In this document: positions 7,001 to 62,895 of the stretch, piece by piece
Layout of the letters: each line of letters starts with the position of its first letter
How positions within the stretch are numbered: position 1 is the stretch's first letter
DNA from: Saccostrea cucullata
Taxonomy: Eukaryota
Assembly: GCF_032062105.1 (NCBI RefSeq)
Contig: NW_026932065.1
Location: forward strand, 124,001 to 188,000
DNA length: 64,000 nucleotides
Direction of reading: 5' to 3'
Position numbers and translations under genes: made by a program
The notes under the pieces: model-generated
The model's database searches: none
The model's input: the letters and a program-made list of their open reading frames with translations, nothing else
What the model was told of the DNA's origin: nothing

Positions 7001-7819
7001 TGGAGTATGTGATTTTTTTGACAAAACTTTTCATAAATGATATTTTCATGTTAGAAGTTAAAAAAATTCAGATATTTTAAAAAAAAATGTAAAAAGAAAT
7101 ACAACTTTTTATGGCATTAAACATATTTATTTCTTTTTAAATAAAAAACGATGAGTGAAAAACAGTTATTTAAAGAGAGTATTGAGATTAATTTTGATGA
7201 CCAGAGCAGTGTTAAATATATAGTGTTGATAATACCGTGTTAAATAACCAAGGTCAATGAAAGTAGTAGACGGATTGTCTCATTGAGTCTGTGGGCATTA
7301 AAAAAGCTAGCCGCTAACAAAAGTTATCACTGTGATTCGATAGAGATCATGAAAAGTAATAATTGGAGATTTCTCCGCATTTGCTTCAAGACCGAAAAAT
7401 TGCTTTGGTATTTCCAAAACAAAAAACAACAATTTTTACATGTGTAAAAGATATTGCTGATGATTTGGGGATAATTTTCCCGCTGGGAAGTTAATTCATT
7501 GATGATAGCTTTCTTTGATGCCGTCCAATAAAAAAAAATGAATATTTTTTCTTAACATGTTAAATGTTTTTATTTCAACACAGATTACCAACACCCAGGT
7601 AAAGTAGGGATGGAATCCAAATCGACAAACGATAACTTTCCGGCGACGATACCAAACCTTCGGAACAAATTAAACACCTAAAAATCGGACACAGAACGCC
7701 TTTTCCACACGCTTAATATGCAGATAGACTTTGCTGTGAAATATCGATAGTGAGAGGCGCATTGGATTTCGCTGTCTTTGCGTACATGGCTTTTTGCAGT
7801 CAATGACAAGTAAGCAAGA

Positions 7820-9001
7820 ATGGGCTCTGTTCATATTGTGAATGAGACTAACTACAGGCACTTCTTATCGCACCTAAGTATGGAATACCATCTCGAAGAC
7901 CCTTTTCATAATTCATCTGACCCAATGTATCATTACAACTTTGATTTGGAAAAATTCGTCGAAGATATGCGTGAAGAACTCAAAGGATACAAGGAACCCT
8001 TGACAATAGCGCTTATATTTCTCTACAGTATTGTGTTCTTCTTGGGGCTTTTTGGAAACATTTTTGTAATAATCACCGTTCTTCACTACAAACACATGCG
8101 CACACTGACTAACGTTTTCTTGGTGAATCTCGCCATAAGTGATTTACTTGTTGTTCTCTTTTGCATTCCTATCACCCTAGGGACCTCTGTTTACAGGGAC
8201 TATGTGTACGGCATTGGAATGTGTAAACTGACGTCATTTCTACAAGGAAGTGCAATCTGTGTAAGTTCCTTGAGCCTTCTCACAATTAGCATCAACCGAT
8301 TTATCGCCATCCACACACCACTGCGCGCCAAAATTACGTTCTCAAAACGGCGCGTTTATTTTATAATCCTTGTTATTTGGTGCATATCTTTTGCTGTGTT
8401 TGCACCTCTGTTAGTGGTGAACAACATTCGAAATATAGGATTTCCACCATTTTTTGACAAGCGAATTTGCAATGAGCATTGGAACCCACCGAGTGGGAAA
8501 CATTTGTATAACATTGTAGTGTTCGTGTCCATTTTCTTCATACCATTGTTAGCCATGATATTAACGTATACCAAAATCAGCTTAGTTCTGTGGAGAACTC
8601 AAGACAAGGCAATTACTCAGACAAAGAGAGTAATTCTGCAGAGACGACGGACCGTTAAATTGTTGATATGTGTTGTTGTCATTTTCTGCGTTTGTTGGTT
8701 ACCATACAACGTCATCTATATCTGGTTGGAATTCAATATCAACACTGCAAGTGTGGTGATTTCAGAAAAAGTGTATCCCTTACTACAGTTATTGGCCATT
8801 TCTAATTCCGCCATTAACCCAATTTGTTACTGCCTTATGAGCAGTGGTTTTCAGAAAGCGTTTTTAAGATTGTGTTGTAAGAGAAGACTTAACTCGAAAC
8901 CGGATGTTATCTTAATGGTGAAATTCAAAGACGGAAGTTCCGAAAGTCAGGAAACTGAGCTCGGAACTCGGTTTACAAGACAGTCACTCACTGTTTGTTA
9001 G
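7820..9001 (+). CDS. Class A (rhodopsin-like) neuropeptide GPCR, orexin/allatotropin/QRFP-receptor-like, uninterrupted CDS, 393 aa
   Basis: Seven hydrophobic segments; GN in TM1, HMRTLTNVFLVNLAISDLL in ICL1/TM2, Cys at the top of TM3 and in ECL2 (ICNEHW), NRF at the DRY position, CWLP in TM6, NSAINPICY in TM7, CC after helix 8; N-glycosylation sequons NET and NSS; AATAAA at 9051-9056. Confidence 0.93.
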   Translation: MGSVHIVNETNYRHFLSHLSMEYHLEDPFHNSSDPMYHYNFDLEKFVEDMREELKGYKEPLTIALIFLYSIVFFLGLFGNIFVIITVLHYKHMRTLTNVFLVNLAISDLLVVLFCIPITLGTSVYRDYVYGIGMCKLTSFLQGSAICVSSLSLLTISINRFIAIHTPLRAKITFSKRRVYFIILVIWCISFAVFAPLLVVNNIRNIGFPPFFDKRICNEHWNPPSGKHLYNIVVFVSIFFIPLLAMILTYTKISLVLWRTQDKAITQTKRVILQRRRTVKLLICVVVIFCVCWLPYNVIYIWLEFNINTASVVISEKVYPLLQLLAISNSAINPICYCLMSSGFQKAFLRLCCKRRLNSKPDVILMVKFKDGSSESQETELGTRFTRQSLTVC

Positions 9002-21995: not shown

Positions 21996-24900
21996 ATGAA
22001 CAACGGGAAACATGTTCGTGGAAAATTTAAGGAGAAAGGGGATAGAGCTTATAAAAAGTTCACTGGAAATAAAACAGAAGGTAATATTCTGCCAAACTGA
22101 ATGACTTTTTAAAAAATTAAATCCATTATTATGTAAAAAAATAAATTTAAGACAATCATGTGCACCGAATTGTCTCTGTCGCCATTAGCTGTGACAATTT
22201 AGAAACAATAATGATAGGCTGTAAAAAAAATGGTATAAGACTTGAATCGTGTTTATTCTTACTAGGCCAGGGCTTTGCTGATAAAAGGAAAAGAAAAATA
22301 CAGCACGAGTATTGGAAACTATTGAAGAAAGAGAAAAAGTCCAAGGAGGAGAACACAAAACATGTTTCTGTTATGGACGAACTTTCTGAAGAGGAGGAAT
22401 CACCCCCAGACGTATCCAAACAAAAGTATGGGCTAGAGCAAATAAAACTGATTTCTTAACTTAAAATTATTCATACTCTACCACTTTCTTTTTTTTATTA
22501 GAGGATATTTGAAGAGAGAGAGAGACTAGGGCAAGAGAGATAACTTTATTTAACTGTAAATGTAAATTAAAATTTTTTCTCAGTAAAATATTGTAAAATC
22601 ATTAGATTTCATGGTGGCTCAGTTTTTATGTACTCCATGGGTACCTTTCATTTATGAATTCACATCCTCCAAATACACAAACTTATGTCCCCACAAAGTT
22701 GTAAAATTGTCCAAACAAAATTAATGTGGATGATTGGAATCACTCGACAGTACTGAATGTGACACATTGTCAAAAGTTAAGAGTTCAGAATTAAGGCTGT
22801 TTTCTGGAAAATACTATAAAATTCCAGATATTCAAGATTTTTGCTCATCTGATTATATTAATAGTTATTTTTAATTGCAAACTTAGAAACTTTACCTACA
22901 CTTAGAAGTAAACCTTCTTGAATGTAATGATATACAACAAGCTTTATTGCAGCTTTTCAAGCCTGTGAGGGGTTTTCAGTCCACTTCACTCTGGAGATTG
23001 ATCTCTTGCAACTGGCTTGCCAAGATGGCTAATTTGATGGAAAGCGACTCTATTTTGTTCAAAGTTTCAACACCCTTTGATGTTTTAAATGCATCACAAA
23101 CATATATTTCGTAGGCGCTTGGTTTCAGAATGGTGTATTTTGTGTATTATGTGTTTTTCTAGGTGTGTCTGAATACCCTCATCAAGATAAAAATAAAAAT
23201 TTGCTGAAATTAGCACGTTTTAAAAATGTCATCTTTACTGTATATAAAAAGAGTAAAGAAGCTTCACTCTCCATCTTGAAAATCGGGGGTACTTCGGTTC
23301 ACAATTTTCATCTATATCTACATTTTTCCTACCGGTGTCGGGTGAGATCTAGCTTCAAAAAAGATTGAATAATGCCTTTCAAACGTCTGCCGATTTGAAC
23401 TTGCCATATAAAACATGCAGTAAACCCAAAATGTCCTCGATACCTAGCACAGAAATCAAAAGCAACAGAAGTGCCGATTTTTAACGATGAAAAATGTAGA
23501 GGCGTCCTGGAATTACATGGAAAATCTAGAGAGGTCAGAAACCGCGCCAAACTTGTTCTCTCTAGATTTTCCGTGTAATTCTGGAACACCTCTACATTTT
23601 TAGGGTTAGTACAGGTGCAAGAATCGAGGACGTTTCGGTTCACTGCATGTTTAAAACGGCATGTGTAGGTCAACAGATGATAGGGAGTTGTCATTCAATT
23701 ATTTTTGAAGCTAGATCTCACCCGACACCAGTAGGAAAAAAGTAGATATAGATGAAAATTAAGTGTGAACTGAGGTACCCCCTGATTATCAAGATGGGGA
23801 GTGACACTCCTTTACTCTTTTTATATACAGTAAATATGACATTTTTAAAACATGCTAATTTCAACGAATTTTTGTTTTTATTTTGATGAGATATTCAGAC
23901 ACACCTAGGAAAACACATAATACACCATCCTGAAACCAAGCGCCTATGATATATTTCAGAGTTTTAGTGAAAAGGACCCAAGAAGTTGTGCTTGAATGAC
24001 ACATAGAATAAACTAGTATAAAGTCTGGCTTGTAAGAAATATAGAGCAAAGGGTACCAAAACTGATACTTCTTTGCATAGCTACTGTAGCAACCAGGGAC
24101 CAAAATTTTAAGGAATTACCAGTAAATAGATGTATTCTTAGGCATTTCACAGGAATGAGTATAGGTTATTAATCAAAATTATAAATTTGTAGGTCTACTA
24201 AGAAGTCCATTGGAACATACTCAAAGGCACATCATGACTTCAAACAGAGAAAGAAAGAGAAGCAGAGGAAAAAGCAGGTAAATTTATATTATTTAATGGG
24301 TTCATCCCCTGGCTTTGGTTAGCTGTAACATAAGCTACATGTAAATAAGCAATTATTCGACAACTCTAATATACATGTGAGTCTTCACACAAAATGTGAA
24401 TAATTATTTCATGAGTAATGGTTTCTTCATTCATCTTTTGAGGCAATTTTTAAATTCCACACATACAATACATTTTTGAGCTAAAAAGTGTATACATGTA
24501 CATCATTCAGTACTCTTTTTTTAACTTTAAAAGTAGCTTGCTCTTTTCAGATGCCTTGTTTAATTGTAAAAATAAAGATTTTTTTCATTCACATTACATC
24601 ATGAGCATCTTCGTAAAATAAATAAATTTAAAAAAACTCAGAAAATGTGTTATTTTTTATGTGGACACAGTTGTGTTCAAGTAAAAAAAAGGTATCCTCA
24701 ATGAATTTGTCCCATATTCTTATTATGTGTATTAGTGAAGGAGTAGAAAATGTGTACATACACATGTATTTTCAAAACAAGTTATTCCTGTGAGGATTTT
24801 GATCATAGTATTTTTTATGTAGTGAAAGGGATAAATATTCTTCAATTTTGATTTACTCTACTTTCATGTTGTTAAGTAGCAGGTATATCATGTTTATTAA

Positions 24901-26337: not shown

Positions 26338-26545
26338 CCGGCCTGTTTTACCCTAAAAAAGACTAAAACCAAAACCTTAAGTTGATTGTAAAATTAAAGA
26401 TTCTGTTTTAAATTGCTAGCTTGAAAATATATCGTTGAATTCTTTTAAGAAAAAAATGAAAACAATTTTCAAATCATTGTAAGATAGATAATTATGAGAA
26501 GAATTAATGTTCTTAGTCGTGAGTTCTTTTGTAAAACGCCCCCTG
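26338..26545. mobile_element. Decayed MITE of the GGCC.TTT.ACAAA..GACTAAG terminal type
   Basis: Left GGCCTGTTTTAC...GACTAA; right TCTTAGTCGTGAGTTCTTTTGTAAAACGCCCC. Confidence 0.45.
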
Positions 26546-26588
26546 TGCTCCATGCTCTATTTAAAGATTTGTATTTTTTATCGCTTAA

Positions 26589-28351
26589 GGTAGGTCGCGG
26601 GTTTACTGCATAAAAATTCTTACGAGAAAACATATCCTGAAAATTTGATAAAATGTTCCTTAGAATTTAAAGAGTATCATCTGCAATTTTTATTAAATTT
26701 GCCTAGGTAGTTTTAATGTTATAGTACTGTAAACGCGGTATAGTTTTTAATTCTTTTTGACGCTTTTACCATTGAAATATATGGGAAAATGACGTTTTTA
26801 AGCCAATTTTGTGAAAATAGTTTCTTTTAAAAATGTTGGATAACTTTTTAAAGATGTAGGCGAATTATTCAGGAATTTCAAAATGTCAAGATGAGGTAAA
26901 ATCAAAACCATTAATATAAAAAAATCAATATGTCTTCTCGCTAGATTTTTTGCTAAATAATTTCAAAGTTTTTTTTCTTAATGCTAAAATTTGGCGTTTA
27001 TGGCGTTGTTAATATCTACAACGTCATTTGTTGAACGTGGTCACGTTTACAGTACGAGTATAAATTTATTGACCTATGGAATATGCAAGAATTCAAAGGT
27101 GATATCGATACAAAATTTAATTTTATTCATCATTTAATTTATTGCGGAGGCATATTAGGATGACCAGCAACTTATTTTCACTAGTATTGTGGAATTCATA
27201 TTCTGATCACAAAGTCAGAATGAAAGGTATAAGTAATCCTCGTGCAGCGACATTAACATGCAGCAACAATGTTCACCGCGAGTGAAAAAAATATTAGTAC
27301 CTGTATTTTTAGGAAATGCATGGTCAAAAGGATTTCAGTCATTAAACAAAAATTTGATCACTTTATTTGAAAACGGTAGGAAAAACATCTCTTTAATGAG
27401 GAAATAAGTGGGCCGGGGAGGGGGGGGGGTACGTGCAATGTTCTTTCTATATTAGTCGCAAGCTATAATATATGGCTCTAAATCTCAAGCATTTTTTAAT
27501 TTCGAATTTTCTGAATTAAATTTCAATACGCAAAATGTAAAACAATTGCATTTAGCTTTTACACGTTGAGCTTTTGTCATAAAAATATATAGAAAATAAT
27601 TATACTTGTAAATTGTTTACAGTGTTTTGTAAGTCTTAAAATCCAGGTGTTTGAATAAATATGATTTTTAAATGCATTTCACAATTTATTAGCAAGCAAA
27701 CCAAGGCGACTGCACGAGATTTAAATACATAACAACCAGCCAATATTAATAATGATAATTTAAAAAAAAAAAAACAGGAAAATACTTGTAATTGAATATA
27801 ACTCAATCGTTTTTAGTGATGAGGCTTAATTTCCATCCTGAAAAGTATACGCATATTTTCGCCCCGGCTTTGATTTGAAGTCAAGTTCCCCTGAGTTTCA
27901 AATAACGTGCGCACATACAATCCCTCAAGTTTCTCGCTAAGCAATTTTTTATTCATGATAACTTTCTTTCTGCAAGCCATAACTTACGCTGATTTATTCT
28001 GATGACTTTAAGCAGTTTAGTTACACTTCAAATATAATTTATTGCTTTCATTTTGTATTAATATTGTATTTAATTAGTCCTAAGACGTTACATATAATCA
28101 CACCAGAATTCAAACTGAAATTTAATTATAAAACATGTACGACGTTTACGTACAATGGCATGCACTTTGTTTGTTTAAAATATACTTGATTCGTAGAGAC
28201 TTGAAGTCATTTGCAGAGAATTAAACGGGAAACAACATGACGTTGTCTTTGTGACGTAATTGACGTCATAATCAAATGTGCACAAAACAATCGCTCGAAT
28301 CGTCGAAATTGTGTACCAAAATTGATGACAAAAGCAAACCCGCGACCTACC
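26589..28351 (+). mobile_element. Non-autonomous Kolobok-type element, copy A (1763 bp)
   Basis: TTAA(26585-26588)-GGTAGGTCGCGGGTTT ... AAACCCGCGACCTACC-TTAA(28352-28355): perfect 16-bp TIR; no transposase ORF. Strand is relative to copy B. Confidence 0.9.
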
Positions 28352-28355
28352 TTAA

Positions 28356-29251
28356 GGTAGGTCGCGGGTTTGCTTTTGTCATCAATTTTGGTACACAATT
28401 TCGACGATCCGAGCTGTTGTTTTTGTGCACATTTGATTATTACGTCAGTAACGTCACAAAGGCAACGTTACGTTGTTTCCCGTTTAATTCTCTGCAAATG
28501 ACTTCAAGTCTGTACGAATCAAGTAGATTAATACAGAGTGCATGCTACTGTACGTAAACTTCATACATGTTTTATTATTAAATTTCAGTCTGAATTCTGA
28601 TGTGATTATATGTAATGTCTTAGGACTAATTAATCAAATACAATACAAAAAGAAAGGAATAATTTATATTGTAAGTGTAATTAAACTGCTAAGAGTCAAT
28701 CAGTATAAATCAGCGTAAAAGTTATGGTTTGCAGAAAGGAAGTTATCATGAGTAAAAATTGCTAAGCGGGAAAATTGAGGGGTTGTATGTACGCACGTTA
28801 TTTGAAAATCAGGGGAACATGCGTGTTGCATTATGACTGCCAATCAAAGCCGGGGCGAAAATATGCGTATACTTTTCAGGATGGAATCAATCCTCATCAC
28901 TAAAAACGGGTTAAATTTGATTATATGTATTTTCTTGGGTTTTCATTAGTGTTTGGTTGTTATGTATTTAAATCTCGTGCATTCGCCTTCTTGTTTTGCT
29001 GGCTAATAAATTGTGAAATGCAGCTAAAAATCAAATTTATTCAAACACCTGTACTGTAAGACTTATAAGACAGTATAAACAATTTACAAGTATAATTTTT
29101 TTTCTAAGCTCAAAGTGTATTAGGTAAATGCAAGTGTTTTACATTTTGCGTATTGAAAATTGATTCAGATAATTCGAAATTAACAAATGCCTGAGATTTA
29201 GGGCCATTTACTATAGCTTGCGATTAATATAGAAAGAACATAGCAGATACC

Positions 29252-29287
<36 letters not shown>

Positions 29288-30101
29288 CTTATTTCCTCAG
29301 TATCGGGATGTTTTTCTTACCGTTTTCGAATAAAGTGATCAATTTTCTGTGTTATGTCTGAAATCCTATTGACCATGAATTTCCTAGAAATACAAGTACT
29401 AATATTTTATCACTCGCGTTTGTCTCTGTACGTTAATTCTCATGCACGAGGGATGTTTATACCTTTCATTTTGACTCAATGATCAGAATATGAATGTCAC
29501 AATACTAGTTAAAATAAGTTGCTGGTCATCCTAGTATGTCTCCGCAATAAATTAAATGATGAATGAAATTAAATTTTGTATCTATGTCACCTTTTAAATC
29601 TTGCATATTCCAAAAGTAAAGATATTTATACTCGTATACTGTAAACGGGACGTGACTACGTTCAACAAATGACGTTGTAAATAACGCCATAAACGCAACA
29701 TTTTAGCAGTATAAAAGAAAACTTTGAAATTATTTAGCAAAAAATCTAGCGAGAAGACATATTGATTTTTTTATAGTAATAGTTTTGATTTTACCTTATC
29801 TTCATATTTTGAAATTCCTGACTAATTCGTCTACGTCTTTAAAAAGTTATCCAATCTTTTGAAAAGAAACTATTTTCACAAAATTGGCTTAAAACGTCAT
29901 TTTCCCATACATTTTAATAGTAAAGCGTAAAAAAAAGTACTAACAACAATACCGCGTTTACAGTGATATAGCATTAAAACTACGTAGGCAAATTTGATAA
30001 AAATTGCAGATAACACGCTGTGAATTCTAAGGAACATTATATAAAATTTTCAGGATATGTTTTCTCGTAAGAATTTTTATGCAGTAAAGCCGCGACCTAC
30101 C
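28356..30101 (-). mobile_element. Non-autonomous Kolobok-type element, copy B (1746 bp), inverted relative to copy A
   Basis: TTAA-GGTAGGTCGCGGGTTT ... AAAGCCGCGACCTACC-TTAA(30102-30105). Full-length reverse complement of copy A with scattered substitutions and indels (roughly 90% identity in the outer 150 bp by eye). Confidence 0.9.
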
Positions 30102-30105
30102 TTAA

Positions 30106-30590
30106 GGTCAAGATCTAGTAAATGACTTTAGAAAAAAATTTCAGTGCTAAATCCATTATGACGTCATAATCACTTTCAACTTTCTTTTTCCCGTACTTTA
30201 CGGCTCTAATAGAATTATGTAGAAAATAAAGTATTTTCATGGAATTCAATTTGAAATCACGTGAAAAGTAGTCCCGATACCTATCTTAAATTTAACATTA
30301 TTTTAAAGTAGAGACTAAGAACATACAAATAACCGTTTTCTGAAAAACTGTAGGCAATCTGGATACATTTTCTTTGTCTGATATGGAAAAAACTCCTATT
30401 TTCAATACTGGTTTTCTTAATTTTTCATTCAAAATGACAGTTTAAAATATGGTTTTTCATCTTGTTTTTCTACAAATAATGCCCCGAAACACCTATTTTG
30501 ACCAAGGTAATGTTATGAAGCATCATTAAAGGAATTAATATCTTAAATTTGAAAAATCTGTAGGCACCTTCCATTTACTAGATCTTGACC
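30106..30590. mobile_element. Non-autonomous Kolobok-type element C (485 bp), a different family from A/B
   Basis: TTAA(30102-30105)-GGTCAAGATCTAGTAAATG ... CATTTACTAGATCTTGACC-TTAA(30591-30594): perfect 19-bp TIR. Confidence 0.9.
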
Positions 30591-31218
30591 TTAAAAGATT
30601 TGTATTTTTTCTCGCTTAAGAAAATCACCGATGTCTTCACCATTTTCATTCAAGTTTTACCCAAAAAACGTTATGTCTATTTCCGAAGAAGTAATTAATA
30701 TAGATAAGGATTTTAATCCAATGTTTCTAAACAATTGCGAAAATTAATGATCGACCTTCTTGAAAGTAAATAATAAATCTGCATGTTAGTCAAATTGTAT
30801 AGAAATATTTATTAATTTAGCAGTAAGTTACGAATTACTTTATTAACCGTTTGAGGTACATGTAGGCAGGTCTTTGTTACGTTGTATGTTTTACATTTTC
30901 CGTAATTGATCTTTTTGGTTGATTTCAAGCAATATTAACCTCAAAAGTCTCTGATAATACCTGTACATCATTTTAAATTATGTGGGTATGTTCATTTCTC
31001 CTAAATAACTATTTAAAAGCAAATAATTTATAAATGTCATTGACTTAATGTATAAAGTTACAGCAGATACACTTTAATAATAATTTTTCCCCGTGTTCCC
31101 CGTATGGTTGATGATATGCTTCCGGTGATGAACTGTCCTGAGTAACACGTTGGTGTTGCATATAAAGGAAGTTTATTTTTAAGGTTCTTAAATTACACGA
31201 CTGTGACATAAACATCCG

Positions 31219-32856
31219 GGGCCTGTTTCACAAACGTTTCCTAAGATATTTCGTAAGACATAACTTAAGATATGCCTAAGTTATAACTTAGGAAGTTCCT
31301 AAGATTTGTCACAGCTGTTTCACGAAACAATCTTATCTTAAATTTTTCCTAAGTTATTTCTTAAGTTGTGCCTTTATAAGGTCTAATGAAAAAACTTCTC
31401 CGATCTATCTACAATTCTCAGTATGTCAGTCTGGTATTTTTTTTTTAGCTTCAAAAAGGGAGGGGATTATCCCAACTTTCAAAGGACTTGGACAGAAGTA
31501 TGTTTTAACTATGCGAAGTTACTATGCTAGAACTAAGCATTCACAGACACACCCTTTCAAGCCTTCTTCCTTTCGGGGAACACGACATTTGTATTTTTTT
31601 AAAAATATAGTTCCACGTTTTATACGTTTACTTTATTTTGCTCTTTATAAGGTATAGATCCCAGGTATCTTTTTACTTTACCTTTCTACTTGTCAATTAT
31701 TGAATGAAATTTAAAAATGATTGCTTTGTAGCGAACACTTGGGCAATAAAATAATGCTTTTCCAATGACTGCCCCACATTAGGAGAGGGCTAAAATGGGC
31801 TGCGCTTGCTGCCTATTCACAATAACATCAGTGAATAAAATATTGATGAAATAAAAAAATAAGTTGTTCGTGCTGTGTGAAGCTTTCTCACATATATAAG
31901 ATAAAATGCCATGCTAGAAAAAAATCCCAAATTCGCGACTACAGATATGAAAATACTAAAAGAAGTTTAAAAAGGAAATTTATTGAAATCTCTTGCACAG
32001 CTAAACATTGTATTAAGCAGGGAGCACAACTGGTTGTAATCTCATGGTCGTACGAACTGGAGGAGCACGGGAGGGTGGGGTATAATAATAATTTTTCCTA
32101 TGTATATATAGAATACTACAGAAAACAAAATTGCGTAATGTTTGTGTTTTCTCAATAATAACGTCTTAGAGGAGATTTGATGCAACCATTCTTCGGAAAA
32201 ACATCTATATATCCGGAGCTTGGTTTGGGGGGATGGGTCATCAAAAATCATGTACTTATCTAAAGTGAACAAGGGTTTCCATTCATCTAATGTATATTTT
32301 TTTCAAATTCTATTTTAATATCCTTTAGAATACTAGTAATATATAAATAAATAAACGTGTACACGTAAATAAAAACATAATGTATACAAGCATGTACATG
32401 TATATTAATGAATCAAATCATGTGCTATTTTTTGTTTAAAAAGGCGTGCTCTTCATTTGATAGGGATTTATTCCAGTATGTGTACATCTATTTCGCCAAC
32501 TCCAGTTTTGTAAACTGACATTTTTATATACCTTGGACTAATTTTGACACATGTTTGCCAATTATTGAAATCCTAGTATTTACGTGCAAAGTAAAGAAGT
32601 TTTATATATATATATTAGTAGTCCATTAGATTTTCTCTCCCCAAACACATTCTTCTCTCCATAAGAAATCTTAGATATGAAGCCGCAATATTTAGTTTCT
32701 TCCTAAGTCATCGATTTACCTTTCCTAAAGTTACGACATAACTTAGGAATATCCTAAGATAAGACGAGGTTAGTGAAACGGATAAGTAATGAACTTAGGA
32801 AAAAGTTCTTTCCTAAGATAGAACTTAGTCCTAAGTAGGCTTTGTGAAACGGGCCC
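31219..32856. mobile_element. Non-autonomous DNA transposon with 3-bp TSD (CCG), Harbinger-like
   Basis: CCG(31216-31218)-GGGCCTGTTTCACAAA ... TTTGTGAAACGGGCCC-CCG(32857-32859); both sub-terminal regions are packed with CCTAAG/CTTAGG/CTTAAG motifs. Confidence 0.8.
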
Positions 32857-33685: not shown

Positions 33686-34864
33686 TCAAAGACATATGTT
33701 GAATTTCTTTAAAATGTCTGTGATTCCTTGTCTGATTTTCTTGTTAACCACACTATATACAATAGGATTTGTTGCGTGCCCAAGAAAAAAGAAGTATCGA
33801 AACACCAAAGTGTCATATATATTAAAAATAGCAAAGAAAAAAGGAATCCAGCAAATAAGATAAATAAATGTACACACGAACATCATGGTCCAGGTTTTGG
33901 TTCGAACATAAGATGTACTTTTAGAGAAACGAAGTATTTTCTTCCGCTTTTGAACTTTATTTTTCCTTGTTTGACTGATTTGAAGACCGTCCTCCTGAGA
34001 TGACGTCACTCCTTCAACAGGTGATTCTGTCCTCGAGTGTGCAGTCGATCCCTCCTCTGTGTTTGGTTCTGGACAGGTTCCTGGTTTTGGTGAATAAGTT
34101 TCAATACTGTCAGCATTAGTACTTTTGTTCAATATTCCCCTTTCCCGCCTCTCCTCAAGTTTTTGTGGATTTTCTGATGGCTGTCCAGTAGAATGCGAAA
34201 CTGAATGCCGAATACGTTTCTTGTGTGTATAAAGAATTACGTAGACAATGACATAAATTATTATCAGGAGCAGAAGTTCAGCTGTTATCATGGTGGACAG
34301 GAAATCCCTGTAAATCTTACTACCATTATCGCCCAAAGTAGTTGTAGTATACCCACAAAATGGTTCCGATGTCTCGGTGCTATGATTGAAGACTTTTGGT
34401 TGGTTTGTCTCATTTTTGGCTGCATCGTTACTGTGAGGTGTCACTTCAATAATAAGTGCTGCAGGAATAGAACAAATTACCGACACCAACAGCAGACCCA
34501 GAATAAAGATAGTTTTCATTTTTGCGGTAACATATTTTTTCATTGGTTTCCAGACCAGCAATAAACGTTCTCCGGCGATCAAAATCAAAATTAGGTTGGA
34601 GAATGCCACTGAACTATGTCGCACAACCTCCATTCCATGGCACATGACGTCATTGGTCACCATATTGAATTCAAAGAAGATGGTATAGGGAACAATAATG
34701 AGATTGATAACCAAGTCTGCTACCGACAGAGTTAGTATATACTTCCGTACCACAAAAGAATGTTTCTTGATAAAGTACACAAGAATAATAAGAATATTCC
34801 CTATGATTCCGCACGTAGCGAAAATTGACATCAACAATATAAACAAAATCTGATCGGAATCCAT
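33686..34864 (-). CDS. Orphan class A GPCR (paralogue 1), uninterrupted CDS, 392 aa from the first in-frame ATG
   Basis: GN (TM1), LSVADL (TM2), C-HGMEVVRHS..ERL (TM3), ECL2 Cys (PFCGY), long ICL3, CWIP (TM6), NPIVY (TM7). The ORF-track start at 34900 is a TTG; the first ATG is at 34864 (MDSDQ). Confidence 0.9.
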   Translation of the reverse strand: MDSDQILFILLMSIFATCGIIGNILIILVYFIKKHSFVVRKYILTLSVADLVINLIIVPYTIFFEFNMVTNDVMCHGMEVVRHSSVAFSNLILILIAGERLLLVWKPMKKYVTAKMKTIFILGLLLVSVICSIPAALIIEVTPHSNDAAKNETNQPKVFNHSTETSEPFCGYTTTTLGDNGSKIYRDFLSTMITAELLLLIIIYVIVYVILYTHKKRIRHSVSHSTGQPSENPQKLEERRERGILNKSTNADSIETYSPKPGTCPEPNTEEGSTAHSRTESPVEGVTSSQEDGLQISQTRKNKVQKRKKILRFSKSTSYVRTKTWTMMFVCTFIYLICWIPFFFAIFNIYDTLVFRYFFFLGHATNPIVYSVVNKKIRQGITDILKKFNICL

Positions 34865-37800
34865 TGCCTTTCTTGTTTTCACAGGGGCATGTAAACGCAA
34901 GATTTGAAATACTAGTCAATGATTCTTGTTCTCTGGTTTATATAAGAAATTTGTTAGACCTTGTGATTTACTGAAATTTTTCATACAAAAAATTCCTATG
35001 ATGCTGACAATGTGTCGGTCAGCTAAGTCTTACACACTGTACGGGGTGGCAAGTCAACGTCATATCGGAGGTGATCTGGTCACAGGGATTTACTTTTGAT
35101 TGAATCCTGTCTTAAAATAGATACTAAAGTAGTATATTACGTTTATCGTGTAAACAGTTTTAAAGTATCAAAACAATGCGTTCATTTATACAGCAACTTA
35201 ATGTGTAATTTGATAAATATGAATAAGTTAAATATTTCGTAAAAGGTGAGAAGTTTTTTTTGTTTTATTACGTTTTAATTTGATTCTGAAGTAGAACAGT
35301 TGGATTAGATCATTTTCTGTAAAACTGATCTGACCTCTCGAGTCATGAATGATATACTGGCCATATAAAGAGCAGATTTTGTACATTCAAAAGAAACCCT
35401 ATGTTGCATGAGTATATTTATAAAGTATGTAAATTATACTGACAATATACGAACGAATAGTGTTCAAAGGATTTTTTAAAGAATAAAATCTGATTCCTTT
35501 GACAAATTCTGAAAAAGAAATCTTCTTTTCAATAAGCAGTTTTTGTTTTTTTAATAGAATTTTTTACTTTGCCTTTGCTATAAGCTTAAGCTAGCCTTTC
35601 TTATCAAATCTTGTCTGACTTTCATGTAGCTGGATATTTAAAACTTTTCACATTTTCGTGACTTCTTCTCAAGAACCACTCGGCAAATTTCTACTAAACT
35701 TGTCACAAAGTATCCCTGGGTGAAGGAGATACAAATTTCTTTTTAAAAAAAGTTGTGCCTTCTTCCAAGCAGAGATGTTTTAGAAATACTAGTAGTAAAT
35801 CTTTTGACATTGTTCAAAAATCATTTTTCTCAAGAAGCACAAAACTAGAGGAGCTGAAACGTAGGGAATGCTTTAAGTTTGTTCTAATCAGGGTCCCAGG
35901 GAGTAGTGCAAAACACAAGGGTAAATCAAAGTTTTTGGAATATACTTGAATTCAGTATGACTATCTAAGGAGAAAACAAGAACATCAGCCGCATGATAAG
36001 TTGTGTGAACATGGAAATACCCCGGTGACGTGTTTTTTTTTCCAGATCTGTTCAAATTTTGGCCGCTGGGTGTAGTATAGGACCACGATAGACAATCGAA
36101 GTTTTAAGTAGGATTTTTAAAAATGCAAAGTTTAAGACATAATTAGTTAAATAAGTGTAAAAGCATTCTGTTGAAGATTTTAAAGTTTGGCTAAATCGTG
36201 GCATCATGAGAATAAGATGGGACGGTAATGGTCGAAATCTGTTAAGGTAGAACAGCAGGACCATAAGTGACTCGGGTGAGCGGTGTGGTCCATGAGACTT
36301 TTCTTTTCTTCGATTTGTGTACTTATTATTCATTTCAGTTACAGTGTATAGTTGATGAGGATAATTATTCAGATACACATGCACATATAAGAAAAGCCTA
36401 TATGACATTTCCCGTAAGTCATTGCCAGTGTGTCAGCGAGATGGTTTTCCTCAGTCATTATACTATGGGTAACCGTATTAATGGGATTTAAAAATAAACA
36501 TTAATTTAAAACAAATGCTAAAAGTATCCGCAGGGAAAATACAAAACGTTATTTTTTTTTAATTTGACTTAAAGTTGTTTTAAGGGTGTAGATGTACATG
36601 TATGAAGAATGAAAAAGTGAAGTTAACGAACAGTTATTAAAACATTGAAAAAAAACAAAACAACAAAAACAAATTGCTACAAATCAGTGAGCACGATCCG
36701 ATATTATGCATATGAAAATATGCATTTAAAATAGAACATTGTTTTAGTAGAAAAAAATTATATTATAAAAATATCAATAACGACTCATATTTATTTTGCT
36801 CACCTTCAATAATAAGATGATTGCAGATTTCTGTTTATTTACACTGAAACTATACATATAACTTATATTGAAAATGACACAGTTCCATGTCAGTCCTGAT
36901 AAAGCCTATTAATGCTTCGTGAATAATAAATGTAGATAGGGAAAGTGGTGTCATTAAAAGAAGTACCCCATGAAAGTTTTAATTTGAAAGGATTCAAGTG
37001 TCAGCATCTAAACCAAGTCTGGGAATACGATTTCAGGAAAAATATGTTAAAAATGCGAAGTTGGGGGAGTCATGGAACAAACTGTAAATTAATTTAAGAC
37101 CAATCTCCAAACACTGATCTCACATGTAATCGGCACGAGATTTCAATAGTGTCACCATGGCCTTCAACTAAAACTTGATATAGAAATAGACTACATTTAC
37201 ATGCATATTACTAGTATGTTATAAATTGAATTTTAAAATATTAAAATTGAGATTCCTTGACGCCTTAAAATGTACTTTTGAAATACAAGGAAGTTAGATA
37301 TATTATAAACGTTTGATAATTTAACATCTTCAAATGTCGTAAAATAAAAATAAAGTGGAAAAAAGTGAGTAAGTTATGAAAAGGGCGGGGTTCGCTTCGC
37401 AAAATTGTTACGCGTGGATCAGTTTCAATATATACCCATTCCCATTCCGACAACGAGGTATACTAATTTACACTTTAATACTTTAGTACCTAAATCAAGC
37501 TTGACGCTTTGACTTAATTCGACCATTTATTTATTGGCCATAAGCAATATCCATAAAACATGATGATCACATTGAGAAAAGGTTCAAATCAAATCTTCGT
37601 GTTGGTCAAAACAGGCAAAATGTTCAATATCTGAAAAACACGCTAAAATTTACATATTCCCACTCTCACTTGGCCTTAAAATTTACATTTTTTTAAATAT
37701 CTTTTTTATTATTATTTTTTAACTACAGTAGATTATTCAAAAGTCTTACATATAGGCATGTGTGTTGACAACAAATATATGATATATTTCTCAGAAATAA

Positions 37801-38263: not shown

Positions 38264-39685
38264 TTAGGACACACTTTCTCTGAAAATTACACTATCCGAC
38301 ACATACTTTCGCCTTGACATTCCAAAGAGTAGTTCTTTAATGCCTCTTCTAACCTTCACATTAACAATGCTATAAATGATAGGATTTGATGCATGTCCAA
38401 TAAAAAAGAAAAATCTTAAAGCCAATACGTCGGTCACACTAAACATCTCAGGGAAGAAAGGGATCCAGGAAACTATATACAGAAATGTACAAATAGACAA
38501 CATTGTCCAGGTCTTTGTTTGGACTACCGAGACTTTCCGGGCGGATGTGATATTGCCTTGATCTACACTGCTACGGATGGATGCTAATGAAGAGTTACGA
38601 ATGGATACTAATGAAGATTTCAGGGTATTTTGTAGACTTATTTGAATAACATCCGAGTCATTTGTTTTCTGCTCTTCCTTTCCTGCTGCTGACACTGAAC
38701 GTTCTACCGTGTTTGATGCAGCTTTTTCTTTTACTGCTTTCTTCTCTAGGTTAGAAGACTTACAATCTTGAACATTAACCGCTGTAGGATCACATTCGTC
38801 TTTAAAAGTGTCTTCTGATTTTTTCAAATGCAACTTTTGTTCTTCATTTACAGCTGTGCATTTGTACGTCGTCTCCTTACTATTGCTTGGAGACAGAGAA
38901 TTCGCTATACAAAATACTGGACCATCGTTTGAACTTTGATTGCTCTCCTTCCTTGCTTCATTTCCTTTGGAATCTCGTTCCCGTAATTCTCGCTGAATGG
39001 ACGACCTAGCAGGTCTTCGAGATGAGCCCACATAAACTCCTCCTATAATACTCTTTCTTTGTCGGTAAATAAGTACAAAGACTAAAATATACATCACTAT
39101 CAAAATGAGCAATTCTGAAATTATTAAGATAATAATAAAATTTCTGTACATATTGCTCTTTTCTTCTCCTAGTATTCCTGTCGTGTAGTCACAATACTTT
39201 TCCTGAACCTGCGTTACGTTGACCGGAAGAGGATCGCCATGAAAATCAACGTCAAAAATAAGAGCAGACGGACTAGAACACACGATGGTAAAAATCAGAA
39301 ATCCTATAATCCATGCGAGTTTTGTCTTACCCTTCATGACTTTCAAAGGCTTCCATACCATTAGCAAACGCTCCATTGCTATCAAAATAAGAATAAGATT
39401 GGAGAATCCTATCCCGGAATGCCGGACTACTTCGAAAACATGGCAGACAAATTTGCTCGTAACTAATCTTAGCTCAAACACAATGGTGTAGGGAGCAACC
39501 ACAATCATTATAACCAAGTCCGTGATTGCTAGCGTGAGGATGTAGGTTCTTCTTGGAAAATGACGTTTCTTTGAAACGTACACTGCGATCACAAGAGCAT
39601 TGCCAATTGTTCCCAAAATGATGTAAATTGATGTTGCGATGAGGAATATGATATGGTTCAAATCCCAAATGTTTTCTTGATACAT
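38264..39685 (-). CDS. Orphan class A GPCR (paralogue 2), uninterrupted CDS; likely start MYQENIW at 39685 (ORF extends to 39730)
   Basis: GN, LAITDL, C-HVFEVVRHS..ERL, KYCDYTT, very long ICL3, SWIP, NPIIY; clearly paralogous to 33686-34864. The upstream ATG at 39730 lies within an acceptor-like TTTTCCTATGTCTTTTAG (minus strand), so it is probably intronic. Confidence 0.9.
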   Translation of the reverse strand: MYQENIWDLNHIIFLIATSIYIILGTIGNALVIAVYVSKKRHFPRRTYILTLAITDLVIMIVVAPYTIVFELRLVTSKFVCHVFEVVRHSGIGFSNLILILIAMERLLMVWKPLKVMKGKTKLAWIIGFLIFTIVCSSPSALIFDVDFHGDPLPVNVTQVQEKYCDYTTGILGEEKSNMYRNFIIILIISELLILIVMYILVFVLIYRQRKSIIGGVYVGSSRRPARSSIQRELRERDSKGNEARKESNQSSNDGPVFCIANSLSPSNSKETTYKCTAVNEEQKLHLKKSEDTFKDECDPTAVNVQDCKSSNLEKKAVKEKAASNTVERSVSAAGKEEQKTNDSDVIQISLQNTLKSSLVSIRNSSLASIRSSVDQGNITSARKVSVVQTKTWTMLSICTFLYIVSWIPFFPEMFSVTDVLALRFFFFIGHASNPIIYSIVNVKVRRGIKELLFGMSRRKYVSDSVIFRESVS

Positions 39686-40373
39686 TTTTTCTCTCCTTCT
39701 GCAGTTTTCTTGAGCTAAACTAAAAGACATAGGAAAACATGCATTTGAATAGTACAGTAATGATAAATTATCGACGAAACTTTTGTATTCATTAAAAAGA
39801 TATTTTTAATCATGTTAAAAGTAAAATCAATTCTAAATCCTACATTCCCTCAATACCAGATCGCAAGAGCTTTCAACTACGTTTTGAATTAATTATTTGT
39901 TTAGCGTTCAAACGCGTCACACATATAATTGCTTCAAAACCCTTAAATACATATTAACTCAATATATGTCATCTTAATTAATTACCATTAATTGATTTAT
40001 TCAAGTCCATTGTGTAAGTCCTGTCACACAAACTCTTGGTACTATTTGTCATTTGTCTCTATTTTTTCTTTTAATTTGATCGTTACATAAACTGAATTGC
40101 TCTCTGTTATGATTCAGGTATTTAGTTTCGAATGTAACTTTTAGATTTTAAAAGAGTTCACATGATCGACCCAGAATAAGTAAAAATTTTATTTAATTGA
40201 TATCACATATTCTATGCCAAGTGTTTAATGAGACAGATACAGTGTAAGTATAAGTTTTTTTTTACTTATTTCCAAATCATGTTTAATTTTATTTGATGAA
40301 TCTATACTTATAATTTTCAAATAAGATATGTTAAAATGTCTCAAATAAAAAGTGTAACAGCTTTCACATAAAC

Positions 40374-48324: not shown

Positions 48325-48748
48325 TTTTTATTTGTTTATTCGAAGAAGGGAGGGCATATTGCTTTGCTGCTGTGTGTCTGTCGCCCCACCATCCGTCAGT
48401 TTCCGTTCATTTTCTTCGCGGAGGTTGCACATATTGAAATGAAATTTGGTATACATATCATAAGAATATCTAGGTCAAGTTTTGTTTTGGTTACGATCGG
48501 ACCATTTCGGACAGAGTCATGCCCCTTGGACTTAAAACAATTCCAATTATTTGCAATTTCCGTTCATTTTCTTTGCAGTGGTTTCACATATTGAGATGAA
48601 ATTTGGTAAAGAGATTTATCATATGAATATCTAGGTCAAGTTCTGCTCTGGGTATCGATCCATTTTGACACAGTTATGTCCCTTGGACTTAGAAAAATTC
48701 TAATCATTTTGTGTAAGGGGCATAAGTGTCTTACAAATATTTCTTGTT
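48325..48748 (+). mobile_element. HINE/Helentron element with ~2 units of the ~161-bp satellite-like repeat
   Basis: TTCGAAGAAGGGAGGGCATATTGCTTTG head, two GCACATATTGAAATGAAATTTGG-type units, tail GGGGCATAAGTGTCTTACAAATATTTCTTG; same family as the copies at 57062 and 61737. Confidence 0.85.
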
Positions 48749-49487
48749 TTTGTTTGTTTTTGCATTGTAAATCAGTTCATAAGATAAAAATTATTTATAC
48801 TTGGAGTTACCAGTCGGTTAGTGTTAATCTATATGATTATTTTGTGAAAATTCCTTTGTATTATTCGAGAGGAAATTCAGTTGTATAAGAATTTGTTTGT
48901 TCTTTTGTTTCAAGTGTATAATAAAATAAAATGTATTTTAAAAATCTACATATTATTTGACATTTCTTTTTTTTTAACTAAATGAGTTTTAGCTCTTATC
49001 ATAATTATTAAGATTGTTGAAAAGCAGATTGTGTCAGTTTAAAGAAGAAGTTGGAAACCGATGAACTATTTCGTGTACATTATTTCAAATTCCCCTTTAT
49101 AAAAATAATATTTAAATGATTACTGGATAGTAATGGACAATGGACTACTTAGAGAATATTACATAGAATGCAAAGAATTGGTTGTACTTGATCACAAACA
49201 GGGCCAATTAAGTGAAGCGACATATTCGTTCCAAGCATCCAGAAGGGACCCGATCTTTGCCTAAAGAAAAGTGCGTTCGTAACATTAAAGCTACATATAT
49301 GTATGGTGTATCTGAGATAAAAATAAAAGTACAAGATTGAGTGTGAATATACATGATATCTGTTATTGTCCCCCACTTCCGCGAAAGCGACTGGACATTA
49401 AATCTCATCAAAATCTGTCACAAAAACTTTAACCTGGTTATATATTTTGAGTGAGAAGAGACAGGACTTGCATATTACACAAGTGTA

Positions 49488-55310: not shown

Positions 55311-58300
55311 ATGGTGAATTGTTTAGTCATTACGGCGATTATATGTGTTTTGGTCACAACTGTGGGCACTATTGTGTCTTTTGCGACGCCTAACTGGTTA
55401 AACGTGAGAGTTCCCACGAGCGGACAAAATCAGCGAGTGGACGTCTGTGATTGCTCAGCTACAGACTGTGATTGTGGGTTATGGCTGAACTGTAGAGGGG
55501 GGCCATCTTCTTCAGGCTCCCTTAACAACTGTCAATGGTTTTTCGCTAATGAATTTGCCATTGAAAAGAATTTACCAGGTATATGGTGTCATTTTCATTG
55601 TCTACTATTTACTACCGCAGGTACTTGGAACTTCGGTTGTAAATATTTATTTTACACAGCCCCCTACCTGGTTGTATGTAAAAAGAGTAACAAAGGATGT
55701 GCATCTAAAATTTCATTAATTGAGTTATGCACAACTCTAGGATTTTTTGATGAGAATTGCACTATTTTATTTCAGCGATTAACCTTTTGGCTTTTTCTAT
55801 TGATTTATATTCTGTTTCACACAAATACAAAAGAAAACAGTTTCAAAAAGGTTTGGGAAATGGGAGACAGTACAGCTGCAGAAGGAAGTCAGACATGTTT
55901 GATTACCTTTAATCTCTGTTCTCATCATGATTAATTGAGACAAAAATTTTGGACTCTTGTCTCTCCGGAAGAGACATCAATATTAGGCCAAACTTTTTAT
56001 ATTTGAAATTTCTCACTGAGTTAAAATTGCCCATTGTGATAGTCTGATTTGGTAGAACAACTAGTGAATATTAATTCAGGGGAGGGGGGCTGCACAGCAT
56101 GTCTATAGAAAAGATAGAGGTGAAAAACCTGACAGGGGATGGCCTTATGGCTTGTTTGAGATTCCTCTGACTATAACCCCTGCTTTTTTTATGATTACTT
56201 TTCACAATATAAAAAGCAGGGGTTAGAGTCAGAGGAATCTCGGATTATCACAATATAAAAAGCAGGGATTTTAGTAAGAGGAATCTCGGATTAAGGGATT
56301 ATCACAATATAAAAAGCAGGGATTAGAGTCAGAGGGATCTCGGATTAGCGATAGCCTGGATATGGGGCAGACATCAGACAGACACACAGGTTCAATCACC
56401 ATTGGCCAGAGAGTCCTTTTGGAAGACTCAAGAGCACCTTCTGGTGTTTCAGAGGGCCTGGGTTTGATTCCAGCCTCCACAATGTAATCATAGAGCTTGA
56501 CATTTTCAATCCATATAATCTTCCAGATTAAGTAACTGTAAGACCTATTTTCTCTTGTTGAAAGTATGATCCTATTCTATTATATGGTATCAGCTGCTCA
56601 CCATGAATTCTCAAAATGTGTAAATATTGTGTTGACAACACATTTTGAATTCATTTATATTGACGGCTTTAACCTGTAATAAAAATGATCCAGATTTATG
56701 GATGCAAGTAAAATCAAGTCTTTAAATCGATATTTGATGCAAAGAAACACTTTATCCTGATATTGCAGTAAATTTTGGAATAACGAAAATGAAAAATGTC
56801 TGCAATTGTATAAAAATTAAAATAATTTTATATTGATCAATGATCACACAGGTATTTATATCTACTAATCTAGTGCACAATACAATTAAGTTTCAATATT
56901 TCTTCAGTATCACTTCCAAAGGTAACCACACACAAAAAAAAAAATGAAAAATAGAATGAATGTTAGGTTAGCTAGAGCTCCAACATACAACAGATAAAAA
57001 ATGCAGCTTTTTGACAAAATAATAAACATGAAAATTTTTGATACTAGTAAACCATTAAATATTTATGCCCCCCTTCGAAGAAGGGAGGGCATATTGCTTT
57101 GCTGCTGTCCATCGGTCGGTCTGTCGGTCCATTTAGTTTCCGTTCATTTTCTTCACAACCGTTGCACATATTGAAATGAAATTTGGCATATAGGTTTATC
57201 AGGTAAATATCTAGGTCAAGTTCTGTTTTGGGTCTGATCGCACCATTTTGGACAGAGTTATGCCCCTTGGACTTAGAAAATTCCCAATTATATGCAGTTT
57301 CCGTTCTGTTTCTTTGCAGACGTTGCACATATTGAAATGAAATTTGGTATTCAGATTTTTCAGCTAATATCTAGGCCAAGTTCTGTTTTGGGTACGATCG
57401 CTCCATTTTTGACAGAGTTATGCCCCTTGGACTCAGAAAAATTCCACTTATTTGCAGTTTCCGTTCATTTTCTTTGCAGAGGTTGCACATATTGAAATGA
57501 AATTTAGTATACAGATATATCAGATAAATATCTAGGTCAAGTTCTGTTTTGGGTATGATCGCATCCTTTTTGTTAGAGTTATGGCCCTTGGACTTAGAAA
57601 AATTCCACTTATTTGCAGTTTCCGTTCATTTTCTTTGCAGAGGTTGCACATATTGAAATGAAATTTAGTATACAGATATATCAGATAAATATCTAGGTCA
57701 AGAAATGTTTTGGGTACCATTGCATCCTTTTTTGTTAGAGTTATGCCCCTTGGACTTAGAAAAATTCCACTTAATTGCAGTTTCCATTCATTTTCTTTGC
57801 AGAGGTTGCACATATTGAAATGAAATTTAGTATAGTAAGTATACAGATTTTTCAGCTGAATGTCTAGGTTAAGAAATGTTTTGGGTAGGATCGCACCATT
57901 TTAGACAGAGTTATGCCCTTTTGGACTTAGAAAATTCCAATTTTGGGGGAGGGGGGCATAAGTGTTTTACAAACATCTCTTGTATTAATAGTTTAAAATT
58001 ATGAAATATAATTATAAAAGAAAGGAATGTTGCTCAAACTGAACCTTTATGTGTGTACTTGAATACAAAAAGATAGTCTCATCTGACTCAGAGAAATTGA
58101 CTGCAGTGTTTCAATAAAAGTATAGTACTTGCTTTGAGCTTTGAACATGTTGAAGATGGAGCTTGCCTTGGTCTTATGGCCACCTGTAGGCATGTGACCA
58201 AAAAAAAACAAAAACAAAAACAAAAACACCACCTTTGATTCTTTGGCTTTGAGTTAAAAATTTGAACTATTTCATGATTTTCCAGTTATCCAATCATTTG

Positions 58301-61300: not shown

Positions 61301-62895
61301 TTAGTTGATATTTTTTGTCATTTTCGAAATTGCATTGCATCTCCAAAAGACTTAATTATCATCCATCACGTAATCACATTACCTAGTAATAACCTAATAA
61401 ACATTCACACAAGGCATTGCCTAGAACTTGGAGAATTGTAACGACTAGACAATAAAAAGTGCTTACATGGTTGAAATGCTGTAATGTTTAATTGACGACA
61501 GTTAACAGTTAAGTTCTTAGCGTTTTACTGCCCCACCTGAGAGGCACCTGGAGGGGACTTAGTTTTACACCTGTCTAATCATCGTCAAGACGTATTAATG
61601 GCACGTGGTGACAGAAGTACACCAGAAAGTGAGAGAATTCCTTTTTAGGTTTATTTTATGGGTGTTATTACTGTTATAATTATAGCCTTGATTTGCGATA
61701 TAACATACAGAGAAAAAAATCTCCATTCAGAAAGTATTTTTATGCCCCCCTTCGAAGAAGGGAGGACATATTGCTTTGCTGCTGTCTGTTGGTCCACTTA
61801 GTTTCCATTCATTTTCTTCACAAACGTTGCACATACTAAAATGAAATTTGGTGTACAGATATATCACATGAATATCTAGGTCAATAATTTCTGTTTTGGG
61901 TACGATCACACCATTTTTGACAGAGTTATGCCCCTTGGACTTAGAAAAATTCCAATTATTTGCAGTTTCCATTCATTTTCTTCGCAACCATTGCACATAC
62001 TGAAATGAAATTTGGTATACAGATATATCACATGAATATCTAGATCAAGTTCTGTTTTAAGTATGTTCGCACCATTTTTGACAGAGTTATGCCCCTTAGA
62101 CTTCGAAAAATTCCAATTATTTGCAGTTTCCGTTCATTTTCTTGGCAACCATTGCACATTCTGAAATGAAATTTAATATACAGATTTTTCAAATAAATAT
62201 CTAGGTCAAGATTTGTTTTGGGTACAATCGCACCATTTTTGACAGAGTTATGCCCTTTTGGACTTGTAAAATTTCCAATGTGGGGCTAGGGGGGCATAAG
62301 TGTTTTACAAATTTAACATCCCTTGTTTGAAAATGTGTTTTAATTAATTTTTGAGCCCTTTGTTGAATGTCCAAGATGTTTCTATAATATGCCTAATTAG
62401 GCCAAACAAAATTACATTCATTTTAGACAGTCCAAGGACTTTGTGTAAAAGAATGTGATAAACATATACATGTATTGTAAAAGTCACAAATTAAATCCAC
62501 CCATGTCCTTGGTATGGCAAGATGAGAGTCTTAATAATAAGTGATGGTGGCTATATTTTTTGAAGATATGATGTCAAAAATTATGTACATGTGTATCATG
62601 TGTATCATTTGAATATTATGTAATATCAATATGTTTTCTTTGAATTTTATTTCTGAAACAAATTGAATTTGTACCATCTTTTACAGTTCTCCTACTAGCA
62701 GTGGCTATTTCACTATTTGGAGCAGAGGCTTACCTTAGGAACAAGGCTGAGGTGTTTACAACAAAGAATCGTGAGAATGAGACCATCCTCCTGTTTGGTT
62801 GGAGCTTTTGGGTCGCTGTGGGGTCCACTGCACTGTCACTTATTGCCAGTATACTCTACTTCTGTGTGGGCAGAAATGAGGAGGAATATAATTAA
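55311..62895 (+). CDS. Claudin/PMP22/EMP-superfamily four-TM protein, 206 aa; exons 55311-55578, 59173-59316, 62687-62895
   Basis: GT-AG introns, phases close (268+144+209=621 nt). TM1 followed by TPNW, GLWLNC...C signature, PDWFKAVQGLM before TM2, FGWSFWVAVG in TM4. Confidence 0.9.
56158..56347. repeat. Tiny inverted-repeat element whose right arm is tandemly triplicated (46-bp unit)
   Basis: GAGATTCCTCTGACTATAACCCCTGCTTTTT followed by three copies of TCACAATATAAAAAGCAGGG.TTAGAGTCAGAGGAATCTCGGATTA (56202-56247, 56248-56293, 56302-56347). Confidence 0.85.
57062..57983 (+). mobile_element. HINE/Helentron element carrying 5 tandem ~161-bp satellite-like units
   Basis: Sub-TIR TTATGCCCCC / GGGGGCATAA, GTCN microsatellite; the GTTGCACATATTGAAATGAAATTT anchor recurs at 57161, 57322, 57482, 57643 and 57805; 3' hairpin GTGTTT-TAC-AAACAT. 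Confidence 0.92.
61737..62327 (+). mobile_element. HINE/Helentron element carrying 3 tandem ~161-bp units
   Basis: Same head, unit and tail as 57062-57983. Confidence 0.9.

Follow-up and report, generated by a model that had tools for sequence, protein, structure and literature searches.

Three Kolobok-type elements chained through shared TTAA sites in Saccostrea cucullata, and a genome-wide excess of such joints

Introduction

In the 1.17-Gb assembly of Saccostrea cucullata (GCF_032062105.1), three transposable elements, here called A, B and C, lie end to end and are joined through single TTAA sites. Elements that form target-site duplications regenerate their target at both ends with each insertion, and here that target is TTAA. 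The locus raises the question of whether such a chain is a chance coincidence, the product of a rearrangement, or the outcome of a preference for the TTAA that borders a resident element. The original prediction was made on 64,000 nucleotides of contig NW_026932065.1 (positions 124,001 to 188,000; the whole stretch analysed, referred to below as the window, in whose coordinates all positions of the locus are given). We examined the locus, the families to which its elements belong, and the joints between elements of these families genome-wide.

Results

Structure of the chain

The order at the locus is TTAA-A-TTAA-B-TTAA-C-TTAA, with the four sites starting at 26585, 28352, 30102 and 30591 (Table 1). 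Inspection of the window sequence confirmed that the elements abut with no host base between them, as predicted. Each of A, B and C starts with GG and ends with CC. The junctions had all been described as CC-TTAA-GG, which is correct for the two inner joints, but the outer ones read GC-TTAA-GG on the left and CC-TTAA-AA, with AA on the host side, on the right. No open reading frame of 100 or more amino acids was found within 26585-30594.

Table 1 Positions of the elements, shared target sites, motifs and duplicated host sequence in the window.
Feature	Position	Strand	Description
Left copy of duplicated host stretch	26561..26588	+	TTAA-20 bp-TTAA; the final TTAA, 26585-26588, serves as the left target site
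Element A	26589..28351	+	1763 bp, family AB, non-autonomous Kolobok-type, perfect 16-bp TIR (GG...CC)
TGACGTCA palindrome	28261..28268	.	Close to the right end of A, the end at the A-B joint
Shared TTAA	28352..28355	.	Midpoint of the 3.5-kb palindrome formed by A and B, whose right ends meet here
Element B	28356..30101	-	1746 bp, family AB, opposite orientation to A, different sub-lineage
Shared TTAA	30102..30105	.	Links the left end of B to the e1 end of C
Element C	30106..30590	+	485-bp MITE, perfect 19-bp TIR
TGACGTCA palindrome	30159..30166	.	Within the e1 end of C, the predominant end in C-C joints
Right target TTAA (30591-30594) and second copy of host stretch	30591..30619	+	Closes with TTAA 30616-30619

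In public contigs from another sample, loose ends are frequent at 30102, 30105 and 30594-30595, matching the element boundaries. Four public runs (contigs, one sample) covered the repeats of 29300-31400 deeply and the unique flank hardly at all, and neither backed nor contradicted the joints. When the left flank was used to search the DNA for an empty allele or haplotig, all matches came from a dispersed repeat that ends near 26545, and no second copy of the locus was found.

This dispersed 200-bp repeat (26340-26545) has GGGC-type ends, is presumably Harbinger-like by this motif, and is separated from the duplicated host stretch by ~15 bp. The chain sits between, and outside all of, three single-exon rhodopsin-family GPCR frames (PF00001) at 7814-9001 (+), 33686-34915 (-) and 38264-39805 (-). 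Two further TTAA-flanked TIR elements with RR termini occupy 504-962 and 23224-23844, the latter within a near-palindrome at 23104-23954, and a repeat that contains an internal array of ~160-bp units occurs three times, at 48339-48750, 57059-57986 and 61736-62312.

Superfamily and families

The TIRs match at 15-16 of 16 positions in A and B and at 19 of 19 in C. A, B and C each have TTAA on both sides, as do most of the 70 full-length copies examined, whose loci had been chosen by a TTAA at one end. Known piggyBac elements have CC...GG termini. A piggyBac assignment was rejected on the GG...CC termini found here, which are not YY...RR, a contrast given in the accessible text of PMC9587614. Kolobok elements are defined there by TTAA duplications, 5'-RR...YY-3' termini and short TIRs, and the termini and TIRs of A, B and C agree with this definition. 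The three elements fit non-autonomous Kolobok-type members, an assignment that rests on their ends.

Genome-wide, 423 exact ends with TTAA were counted for family AB and 1912 for C; a family D has 1532 (a filtered count) and a family H has 600. C has no similarity to A or to family AB past the opening bases, GGT. The two ends of C are designated e1, which bears TGACGTCA, and e2; we take TGACGTCA to be a CRE-like palindrome.

A profile search with PF20700, which we take as a marker of Kolobok transposases, gave 114 scored matches in the genome, and the 30 of these 114 loci that were compared, with 1.5 kb of flank, have nothing in common with A or C. Long AB copies were rejected as an autonomous partner, their length deriving from nested inserts; one (L091) holds no informative frame, and another (L092:3872-8068) contains a nested DIRS-type retrotransposon with frames that by eye are gag-like, reverse transcriptase and tyrosine recombinase. 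In the KolobokP elements of bivalves, direct LTDRs of ~450 or 660 bp flank an internal region with a transposase and a His-Me nuclease, as far as described in the accessible text of PMC9587614. C was also rejected as such an LTDR: its copies stand alone or belong to TTAA chains rather than forming direct repeats around an internal region, and the C-X-C cases seen enclose only other non-autonomous TIR elements (30 of the 114 PF20700 loci examined). The genome also holds a young family with 97-99% identity and intact 686-aa PF20700 frames in 4.1-kb head-to-tail arrays (L188, L190, L196, L206 and others, on contigs C4853, C8789, C11481 and C10732 of this assembly, G000); by their layout, these arrays appear to resemble KolobokP-type multimers.

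A and B are separate insertions of one family

A and B were predicted to carry the same TIR. They do, but the relation is closer: they are inverted members of one family, 89.7% identical over aligned columns, and meet right end to right end. Together they form an imperfect palindrome (90%) of 3.5 kb, 26589-30101, centred on the TTAA at 28352. A palindrome that is perfectly symmetrical at its centre, with a joint that lacks read support, could be a fold-back duplication or an assembly artefact. We aligned 40 left ends and 32 right ends of the family. The nearest sampled relative of B is a solo copy (L012/L013) at 97% with a bootstrap of 100, and those of A are L003/L004 at 95%, compared with 89-90% between A and B. 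Each arm is better matched by a copy elsewhere than by its partner, so that a fold-back duplication is ruled out and an assembly artefact is unlikely. The arms are also 10% apart with many indels, and the symmetry ends at the element boundaries. We therefore give this explanation almost no weight; A and B are two separate insertions from different sub-lineages.

It had also been proposed that A and B could move, or could formerly have moved, as one composite unit via their outer ends. Each outer end does have the 16-bp TIR beside a TTAA, and at L073 an internally deleted inverted C dimer has two e2 outer ends. Many cut-and-paste transposases require one end of each type, and here both outer ends are left ends. 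Among the 41 exact AB ends flanked by CC, this is the sole right-end to right-end AB joint, and no junction was seen again with new flanks. Where junction loci had both partners in common at 97% identity or above, they proved to be the same locus or near-identical duplicate contigs. A search with exact 16-base ends did not find the same unit at other loci, and largely refutes the composite, which gains no support from the CC-flanked ends and which we consider highly improbable.

End-to-end joints far exceed random TTAA choice

Exact end-to-end joints between the four Kolobok-type families were counted and compared with an expectation built on the end counts and on ~11.3 TTAA per kb. We observed 23 joints against 0.26 expected from random TTAA choice, an excess of ~89-fold, with P about 4e-21 even when a 5-fold local base preference is allowed. 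By class, observed and expected numbers were 7 and 0.069 for C-C, 6 and 0.11 for C-D, 4 and 0.031 for C-AB, 1 and 0.003 for AB-AB, and 5 and 0.043 for C-H. C-C, C-D, C-AB and C-H joints are enriched to a similar degree (54- to 131-fold), whether the partners come from one family or from two. After removal of this locus and one duplicate contig, the first four classes retain 15 joints against 0.21 expected. The assembly includes near-identical duplicate contigs (for example C5416/C10973, C8812/C9610 and C394/C1639), which are likely haplotigs and inflate repeat and joint counts.

The flanks of the ends gave a second measure. CC precedes 41 of 423 AB ends and 195 of 1912 C ends, against a background of 2.9% for GG after TTAA. 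GG-flanked C ends were taken from the 69 and 100 matches listed with flanks, most of which were fetched, using patterns that drop ~16% of sites. A TIR element is touched at 49 of 159 distinct GG-flanked C ends and at 1 of 55 background GG sites (P 1.5e-6), the background being small and excluding the six ends of this chain. The partner is C or a close relative in 18 of the 49 rows (some C-C joints being counted twice), one of six other recurring families in 25, and identified by its TIR mate only in 6. Strong cross-family joints alone amount to 25 of 141 (P 0.002), and among GG-flanked AB sites, 14 of 35 distinct sites touch a TIR element. The original prediction that three insertions at one site are unlikely by chance, and that junction counts would reveal an excess, was borne out on both measures.

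The local base preference is modest. A G at position +1 was hand counted in 36 of 100 C flanks against a background of 13.9%; the preference is ~3.5-fold for GG and GGT and ~1.5-fold for the host half-site, in total ~5-fold. Regional clustering was rejected as the cause. The 1828 non-adjacent TTAA sides within 1.5 kb around 61 unselected ends contained 0 exact C, AB or D ends, against 4.8 expected if the excess were regional, and the excess is restricted to the adjacent sites.

About 3% of C ends adjoin another TIR element, a rate that gives about one doubly flanked C by chance. Other three-element chains exist, and the chains seen include C-AB-C (L138), C-E-C (L159) and H-remnant-C-H (L160), so this locus is one of several. 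The original prediction spoke of self-seeding arrays; with two to four elements per chain, "arrays" is too strong a term.

These counts could be explained by host sites alone, if ~1% of TTAAs were good targets for all Kolobok families through their sequence or chromatin and the resident element added nothing. This is the plain double-insertion model of McGurk and Barbash (10.1101/158386, accessible text). C, D and AB are found repeatedly at the same positions within other repeats, different families using the same repeat-internal sites at different loci; intrinsically hot host sites exist. The similar enrichment within and between families is what a property of the site predicts. Against this, the measured base preference is ~5-fold only, and a first insertion replaces half of the host context. 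One-end use, described below, is not predicted either (C 10:1, D 3:0, H 11:1). We regard hot host sites as an unlikely sole explanation.

At L036 and L131, AB adjoins a 507-513-bp TIR element at a TTAA inside an H element, ~110 bp from the motif-bearing end of H.

Same-family dimers are mostly inverted, and several families favour one end

A genome-wide search for C-C joints with at most 2 mismatches found 15 sites, or 14 after merging a same-flank pair. Of these, 10 are e1-e1, 1 is e2-e2, 2 are direct and 1 is untyped; three were typed by eye, one arm being interrupted. Elsewhere, e1 is not the commoner end of C (105 e1 and 129 e2 at non-joint sites). All three D-D joints are at one end. In its joints with C or AB, H uses one end over the other at 11:1 (P 0.011), and its two ends are equally common, 50:49 in a hand count among 100 listed. 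Same-family dimers are inverted rather than direct at 15:3 (P 0.008). These polarity tests were picked post hoc and have small numbers. AB joints have no end bias, with 7 left and 7 right. Cross-family joints with motif-defined ends are like-to-like in 11 cases and not in 5 (P 0.21), and the e1 share of C in cross-family joints is 18/31, which is not significant (P 0.31).

TGACGTCA is present at the favoured end of C, H and AB and absent from that of D. The motif was rejected as a general cause of polarity, since the favoured ends of D and E do not have it.

The arms of most dimers are unrelated, 82-92% identical in pairs aligned over a long length, compared with a family median of 89.6%; one pair reaches 98%. 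This pair is a single C-C dimer locus found on two contigs (L119 and L140, on C3494 and C10642), whose arms are mutual nearest relatives among 61 copies. Its 98% identity would fit a local hop or conversion between the arms. Central or near-central deletions are present in several inverted dimers (L073, L155, L157 and L210). In L073 (1500-2270), an inverted C dimer has lost its centre, including the TTAA joint, leaving a 733-bp foldback-like remnant with two e2 ends.

A duplicated host stretch surrounds the chain

A host stretch of 28/29 bp is present on both sides of the chain (26561-26588 and 30591-30619), bounded exactly by TTAA at each end; its copies differ by one indel and one substitution. 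When 70 full-length copies of C or AB were tested one by one, none had a comparably extended flanking duplication. The simplest origin would be one staggered insertion whose two strand transfers used TTAAs separated by 24 bp. A tandem duplication of earlier date would fit too, as would the joining of two alleles through a hybrid end.

In the latter case the B-C joint would be a fusion of two alleles by hybrid-end transposition, where one of the two chromosomes carried A and B at the second TTAA and the other carried C at the first, which lies 24 bp upstream. Such a fusion would yield the 28-bp flanking duplication in a single step and with its exact TTAA-to-TTAA limits, a form of duplication seen in 0 of the 70 full-length copies, and hybrid element insertion between sisters or homologues has been described (PMC2775673, accessible text). 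Compared with an older tandem duplication or a single staggered insertion, it calls for two further assumptions; it still needs the C-adjacent TTAA as a target, and the C-AB joints at L135 and L138 have no such duplication. We consider an allele fusion very unlikely.

Discussion

A proposed model of sequential insertion

We propose that the chain probably arose by sequential insertion into regenerated TTAAs, with a TTAA adjacent to an element end being used ~70-90 times more than a random TTAA. A, B and C would have inserted one after another, each into a TTAA regenerated earlier; C and A may tentatively be placed first, with B last in between. One resident end would then improve the neighbouring TTAA as a target for the transposases of several families, perhaps through a bound protein or through open or bent DNA. 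Recombination would remove same-family dimers in direct orientation, so that the inverted ones remain.

Sites are reused by families that have nothing but GG or GGT in common in their TIRs. This speaks against recognition of the resident TIR sequence and in favour of a property of the site, to which the resident element likely contributes, given that one end is favoured. The original prediction, of a preference for the TTAA beside a resident Kolobok end, agrees with the excess found there, but causation by the resident end, as opposed to a host site that was already hot, is suggested by the polarity rather than observed. A bolder reading is that bivalve Kolobok transposases actively home on one resident end across families and insert head to head, which we view as possible but doubtful. 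If true, this would be a eukaryotic cross-family end-targeting rule by which new copies are parked in a safe site, and long near-palindromes would continually form and later decay into foldback-like elements.

Comparison with known systems

Double insertion at a regenerated target is already known from Drosophila, plant MITEs and IS30. The joints enriched genome-wide here are likely a stronger, cross-family and end-polar form of this effect. No account of cross-family, end-polar Kolobok chains was found in the literature searched, whose coverage is incomplete; the KolobokP junction figures S2-S5 may bear on this.

McGurk and Barbash attribute dimers of Drosophila transposable elements to a second element that enters the target preserved by the first, and P element dimers were head-to-tail in 55 of 85 strains and head-to-head in 8 of 85 (10.1101/158386, accessible text). 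The present joints share with them the single target-site copy per joint and partners of independent origin. In the Drosophila DNA-transposon dimers studied there, both partners come from a single family and usually lie head to tail, whereas here at least six families take part, same-family dimers are mostly inverted (15:3) and one end is favoured.

In IS30 and IS911, insertion occurs beside a resident terminal repeat under an orientation rule (PMC9333248, accessible text). The position directly beside a terminal repeat is common to this IR-targeting and to the present case, which is known from standing genomic counts. As far as that text describes them, the IS elements are bacterial, move by copy-out/paste-in and target the same element, left to right only, whereas the present joints are mostly like-to-like and also link different families. 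Plant MITE multimers are reviewed as MITEs that target MITEs through independent, adjacent or nested insertions (PMC5172404, accessible text); these are mostly nested inside elements, whereas the elements here abut through the target duplication.

A, B and C resemble non-autonomous Kolobok members such as the Xenopus T2-MITE in their TTAA, RR...YY termini and short TIRs (PMC9587614, PMC6004289). A, B and C have no transposase, and TTAA end-to-end chaining is absent from the accessible text of those accounts. KolobokP belongs to the same superfamily, has duplications that vary from 3 to 5 bp, and forms multimers for which unequal crossover was proposed (PMC9587614, accessible text). Its composite-like chains resemble those seen here, C is near the size of the 450-bp LTDR, and one C-AB-C chain resembles LTDR-INT-LTDR. 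In contrast to KolobokP, C has TTAA flanks, is mostly solo and is unmatched in 30 of the 114 PF20700 loci.

If resident ends do seed insertions across families, ~3% of elements would lie in chains that repeat annotation misreads as single or composite elements. Polarity offers a cheap handle on Kolobok target choice beyond TTAA, and no study of such choice was found in the literature searched. Inverted dimers of this kind are a steady source of kilobase near-palindromes.
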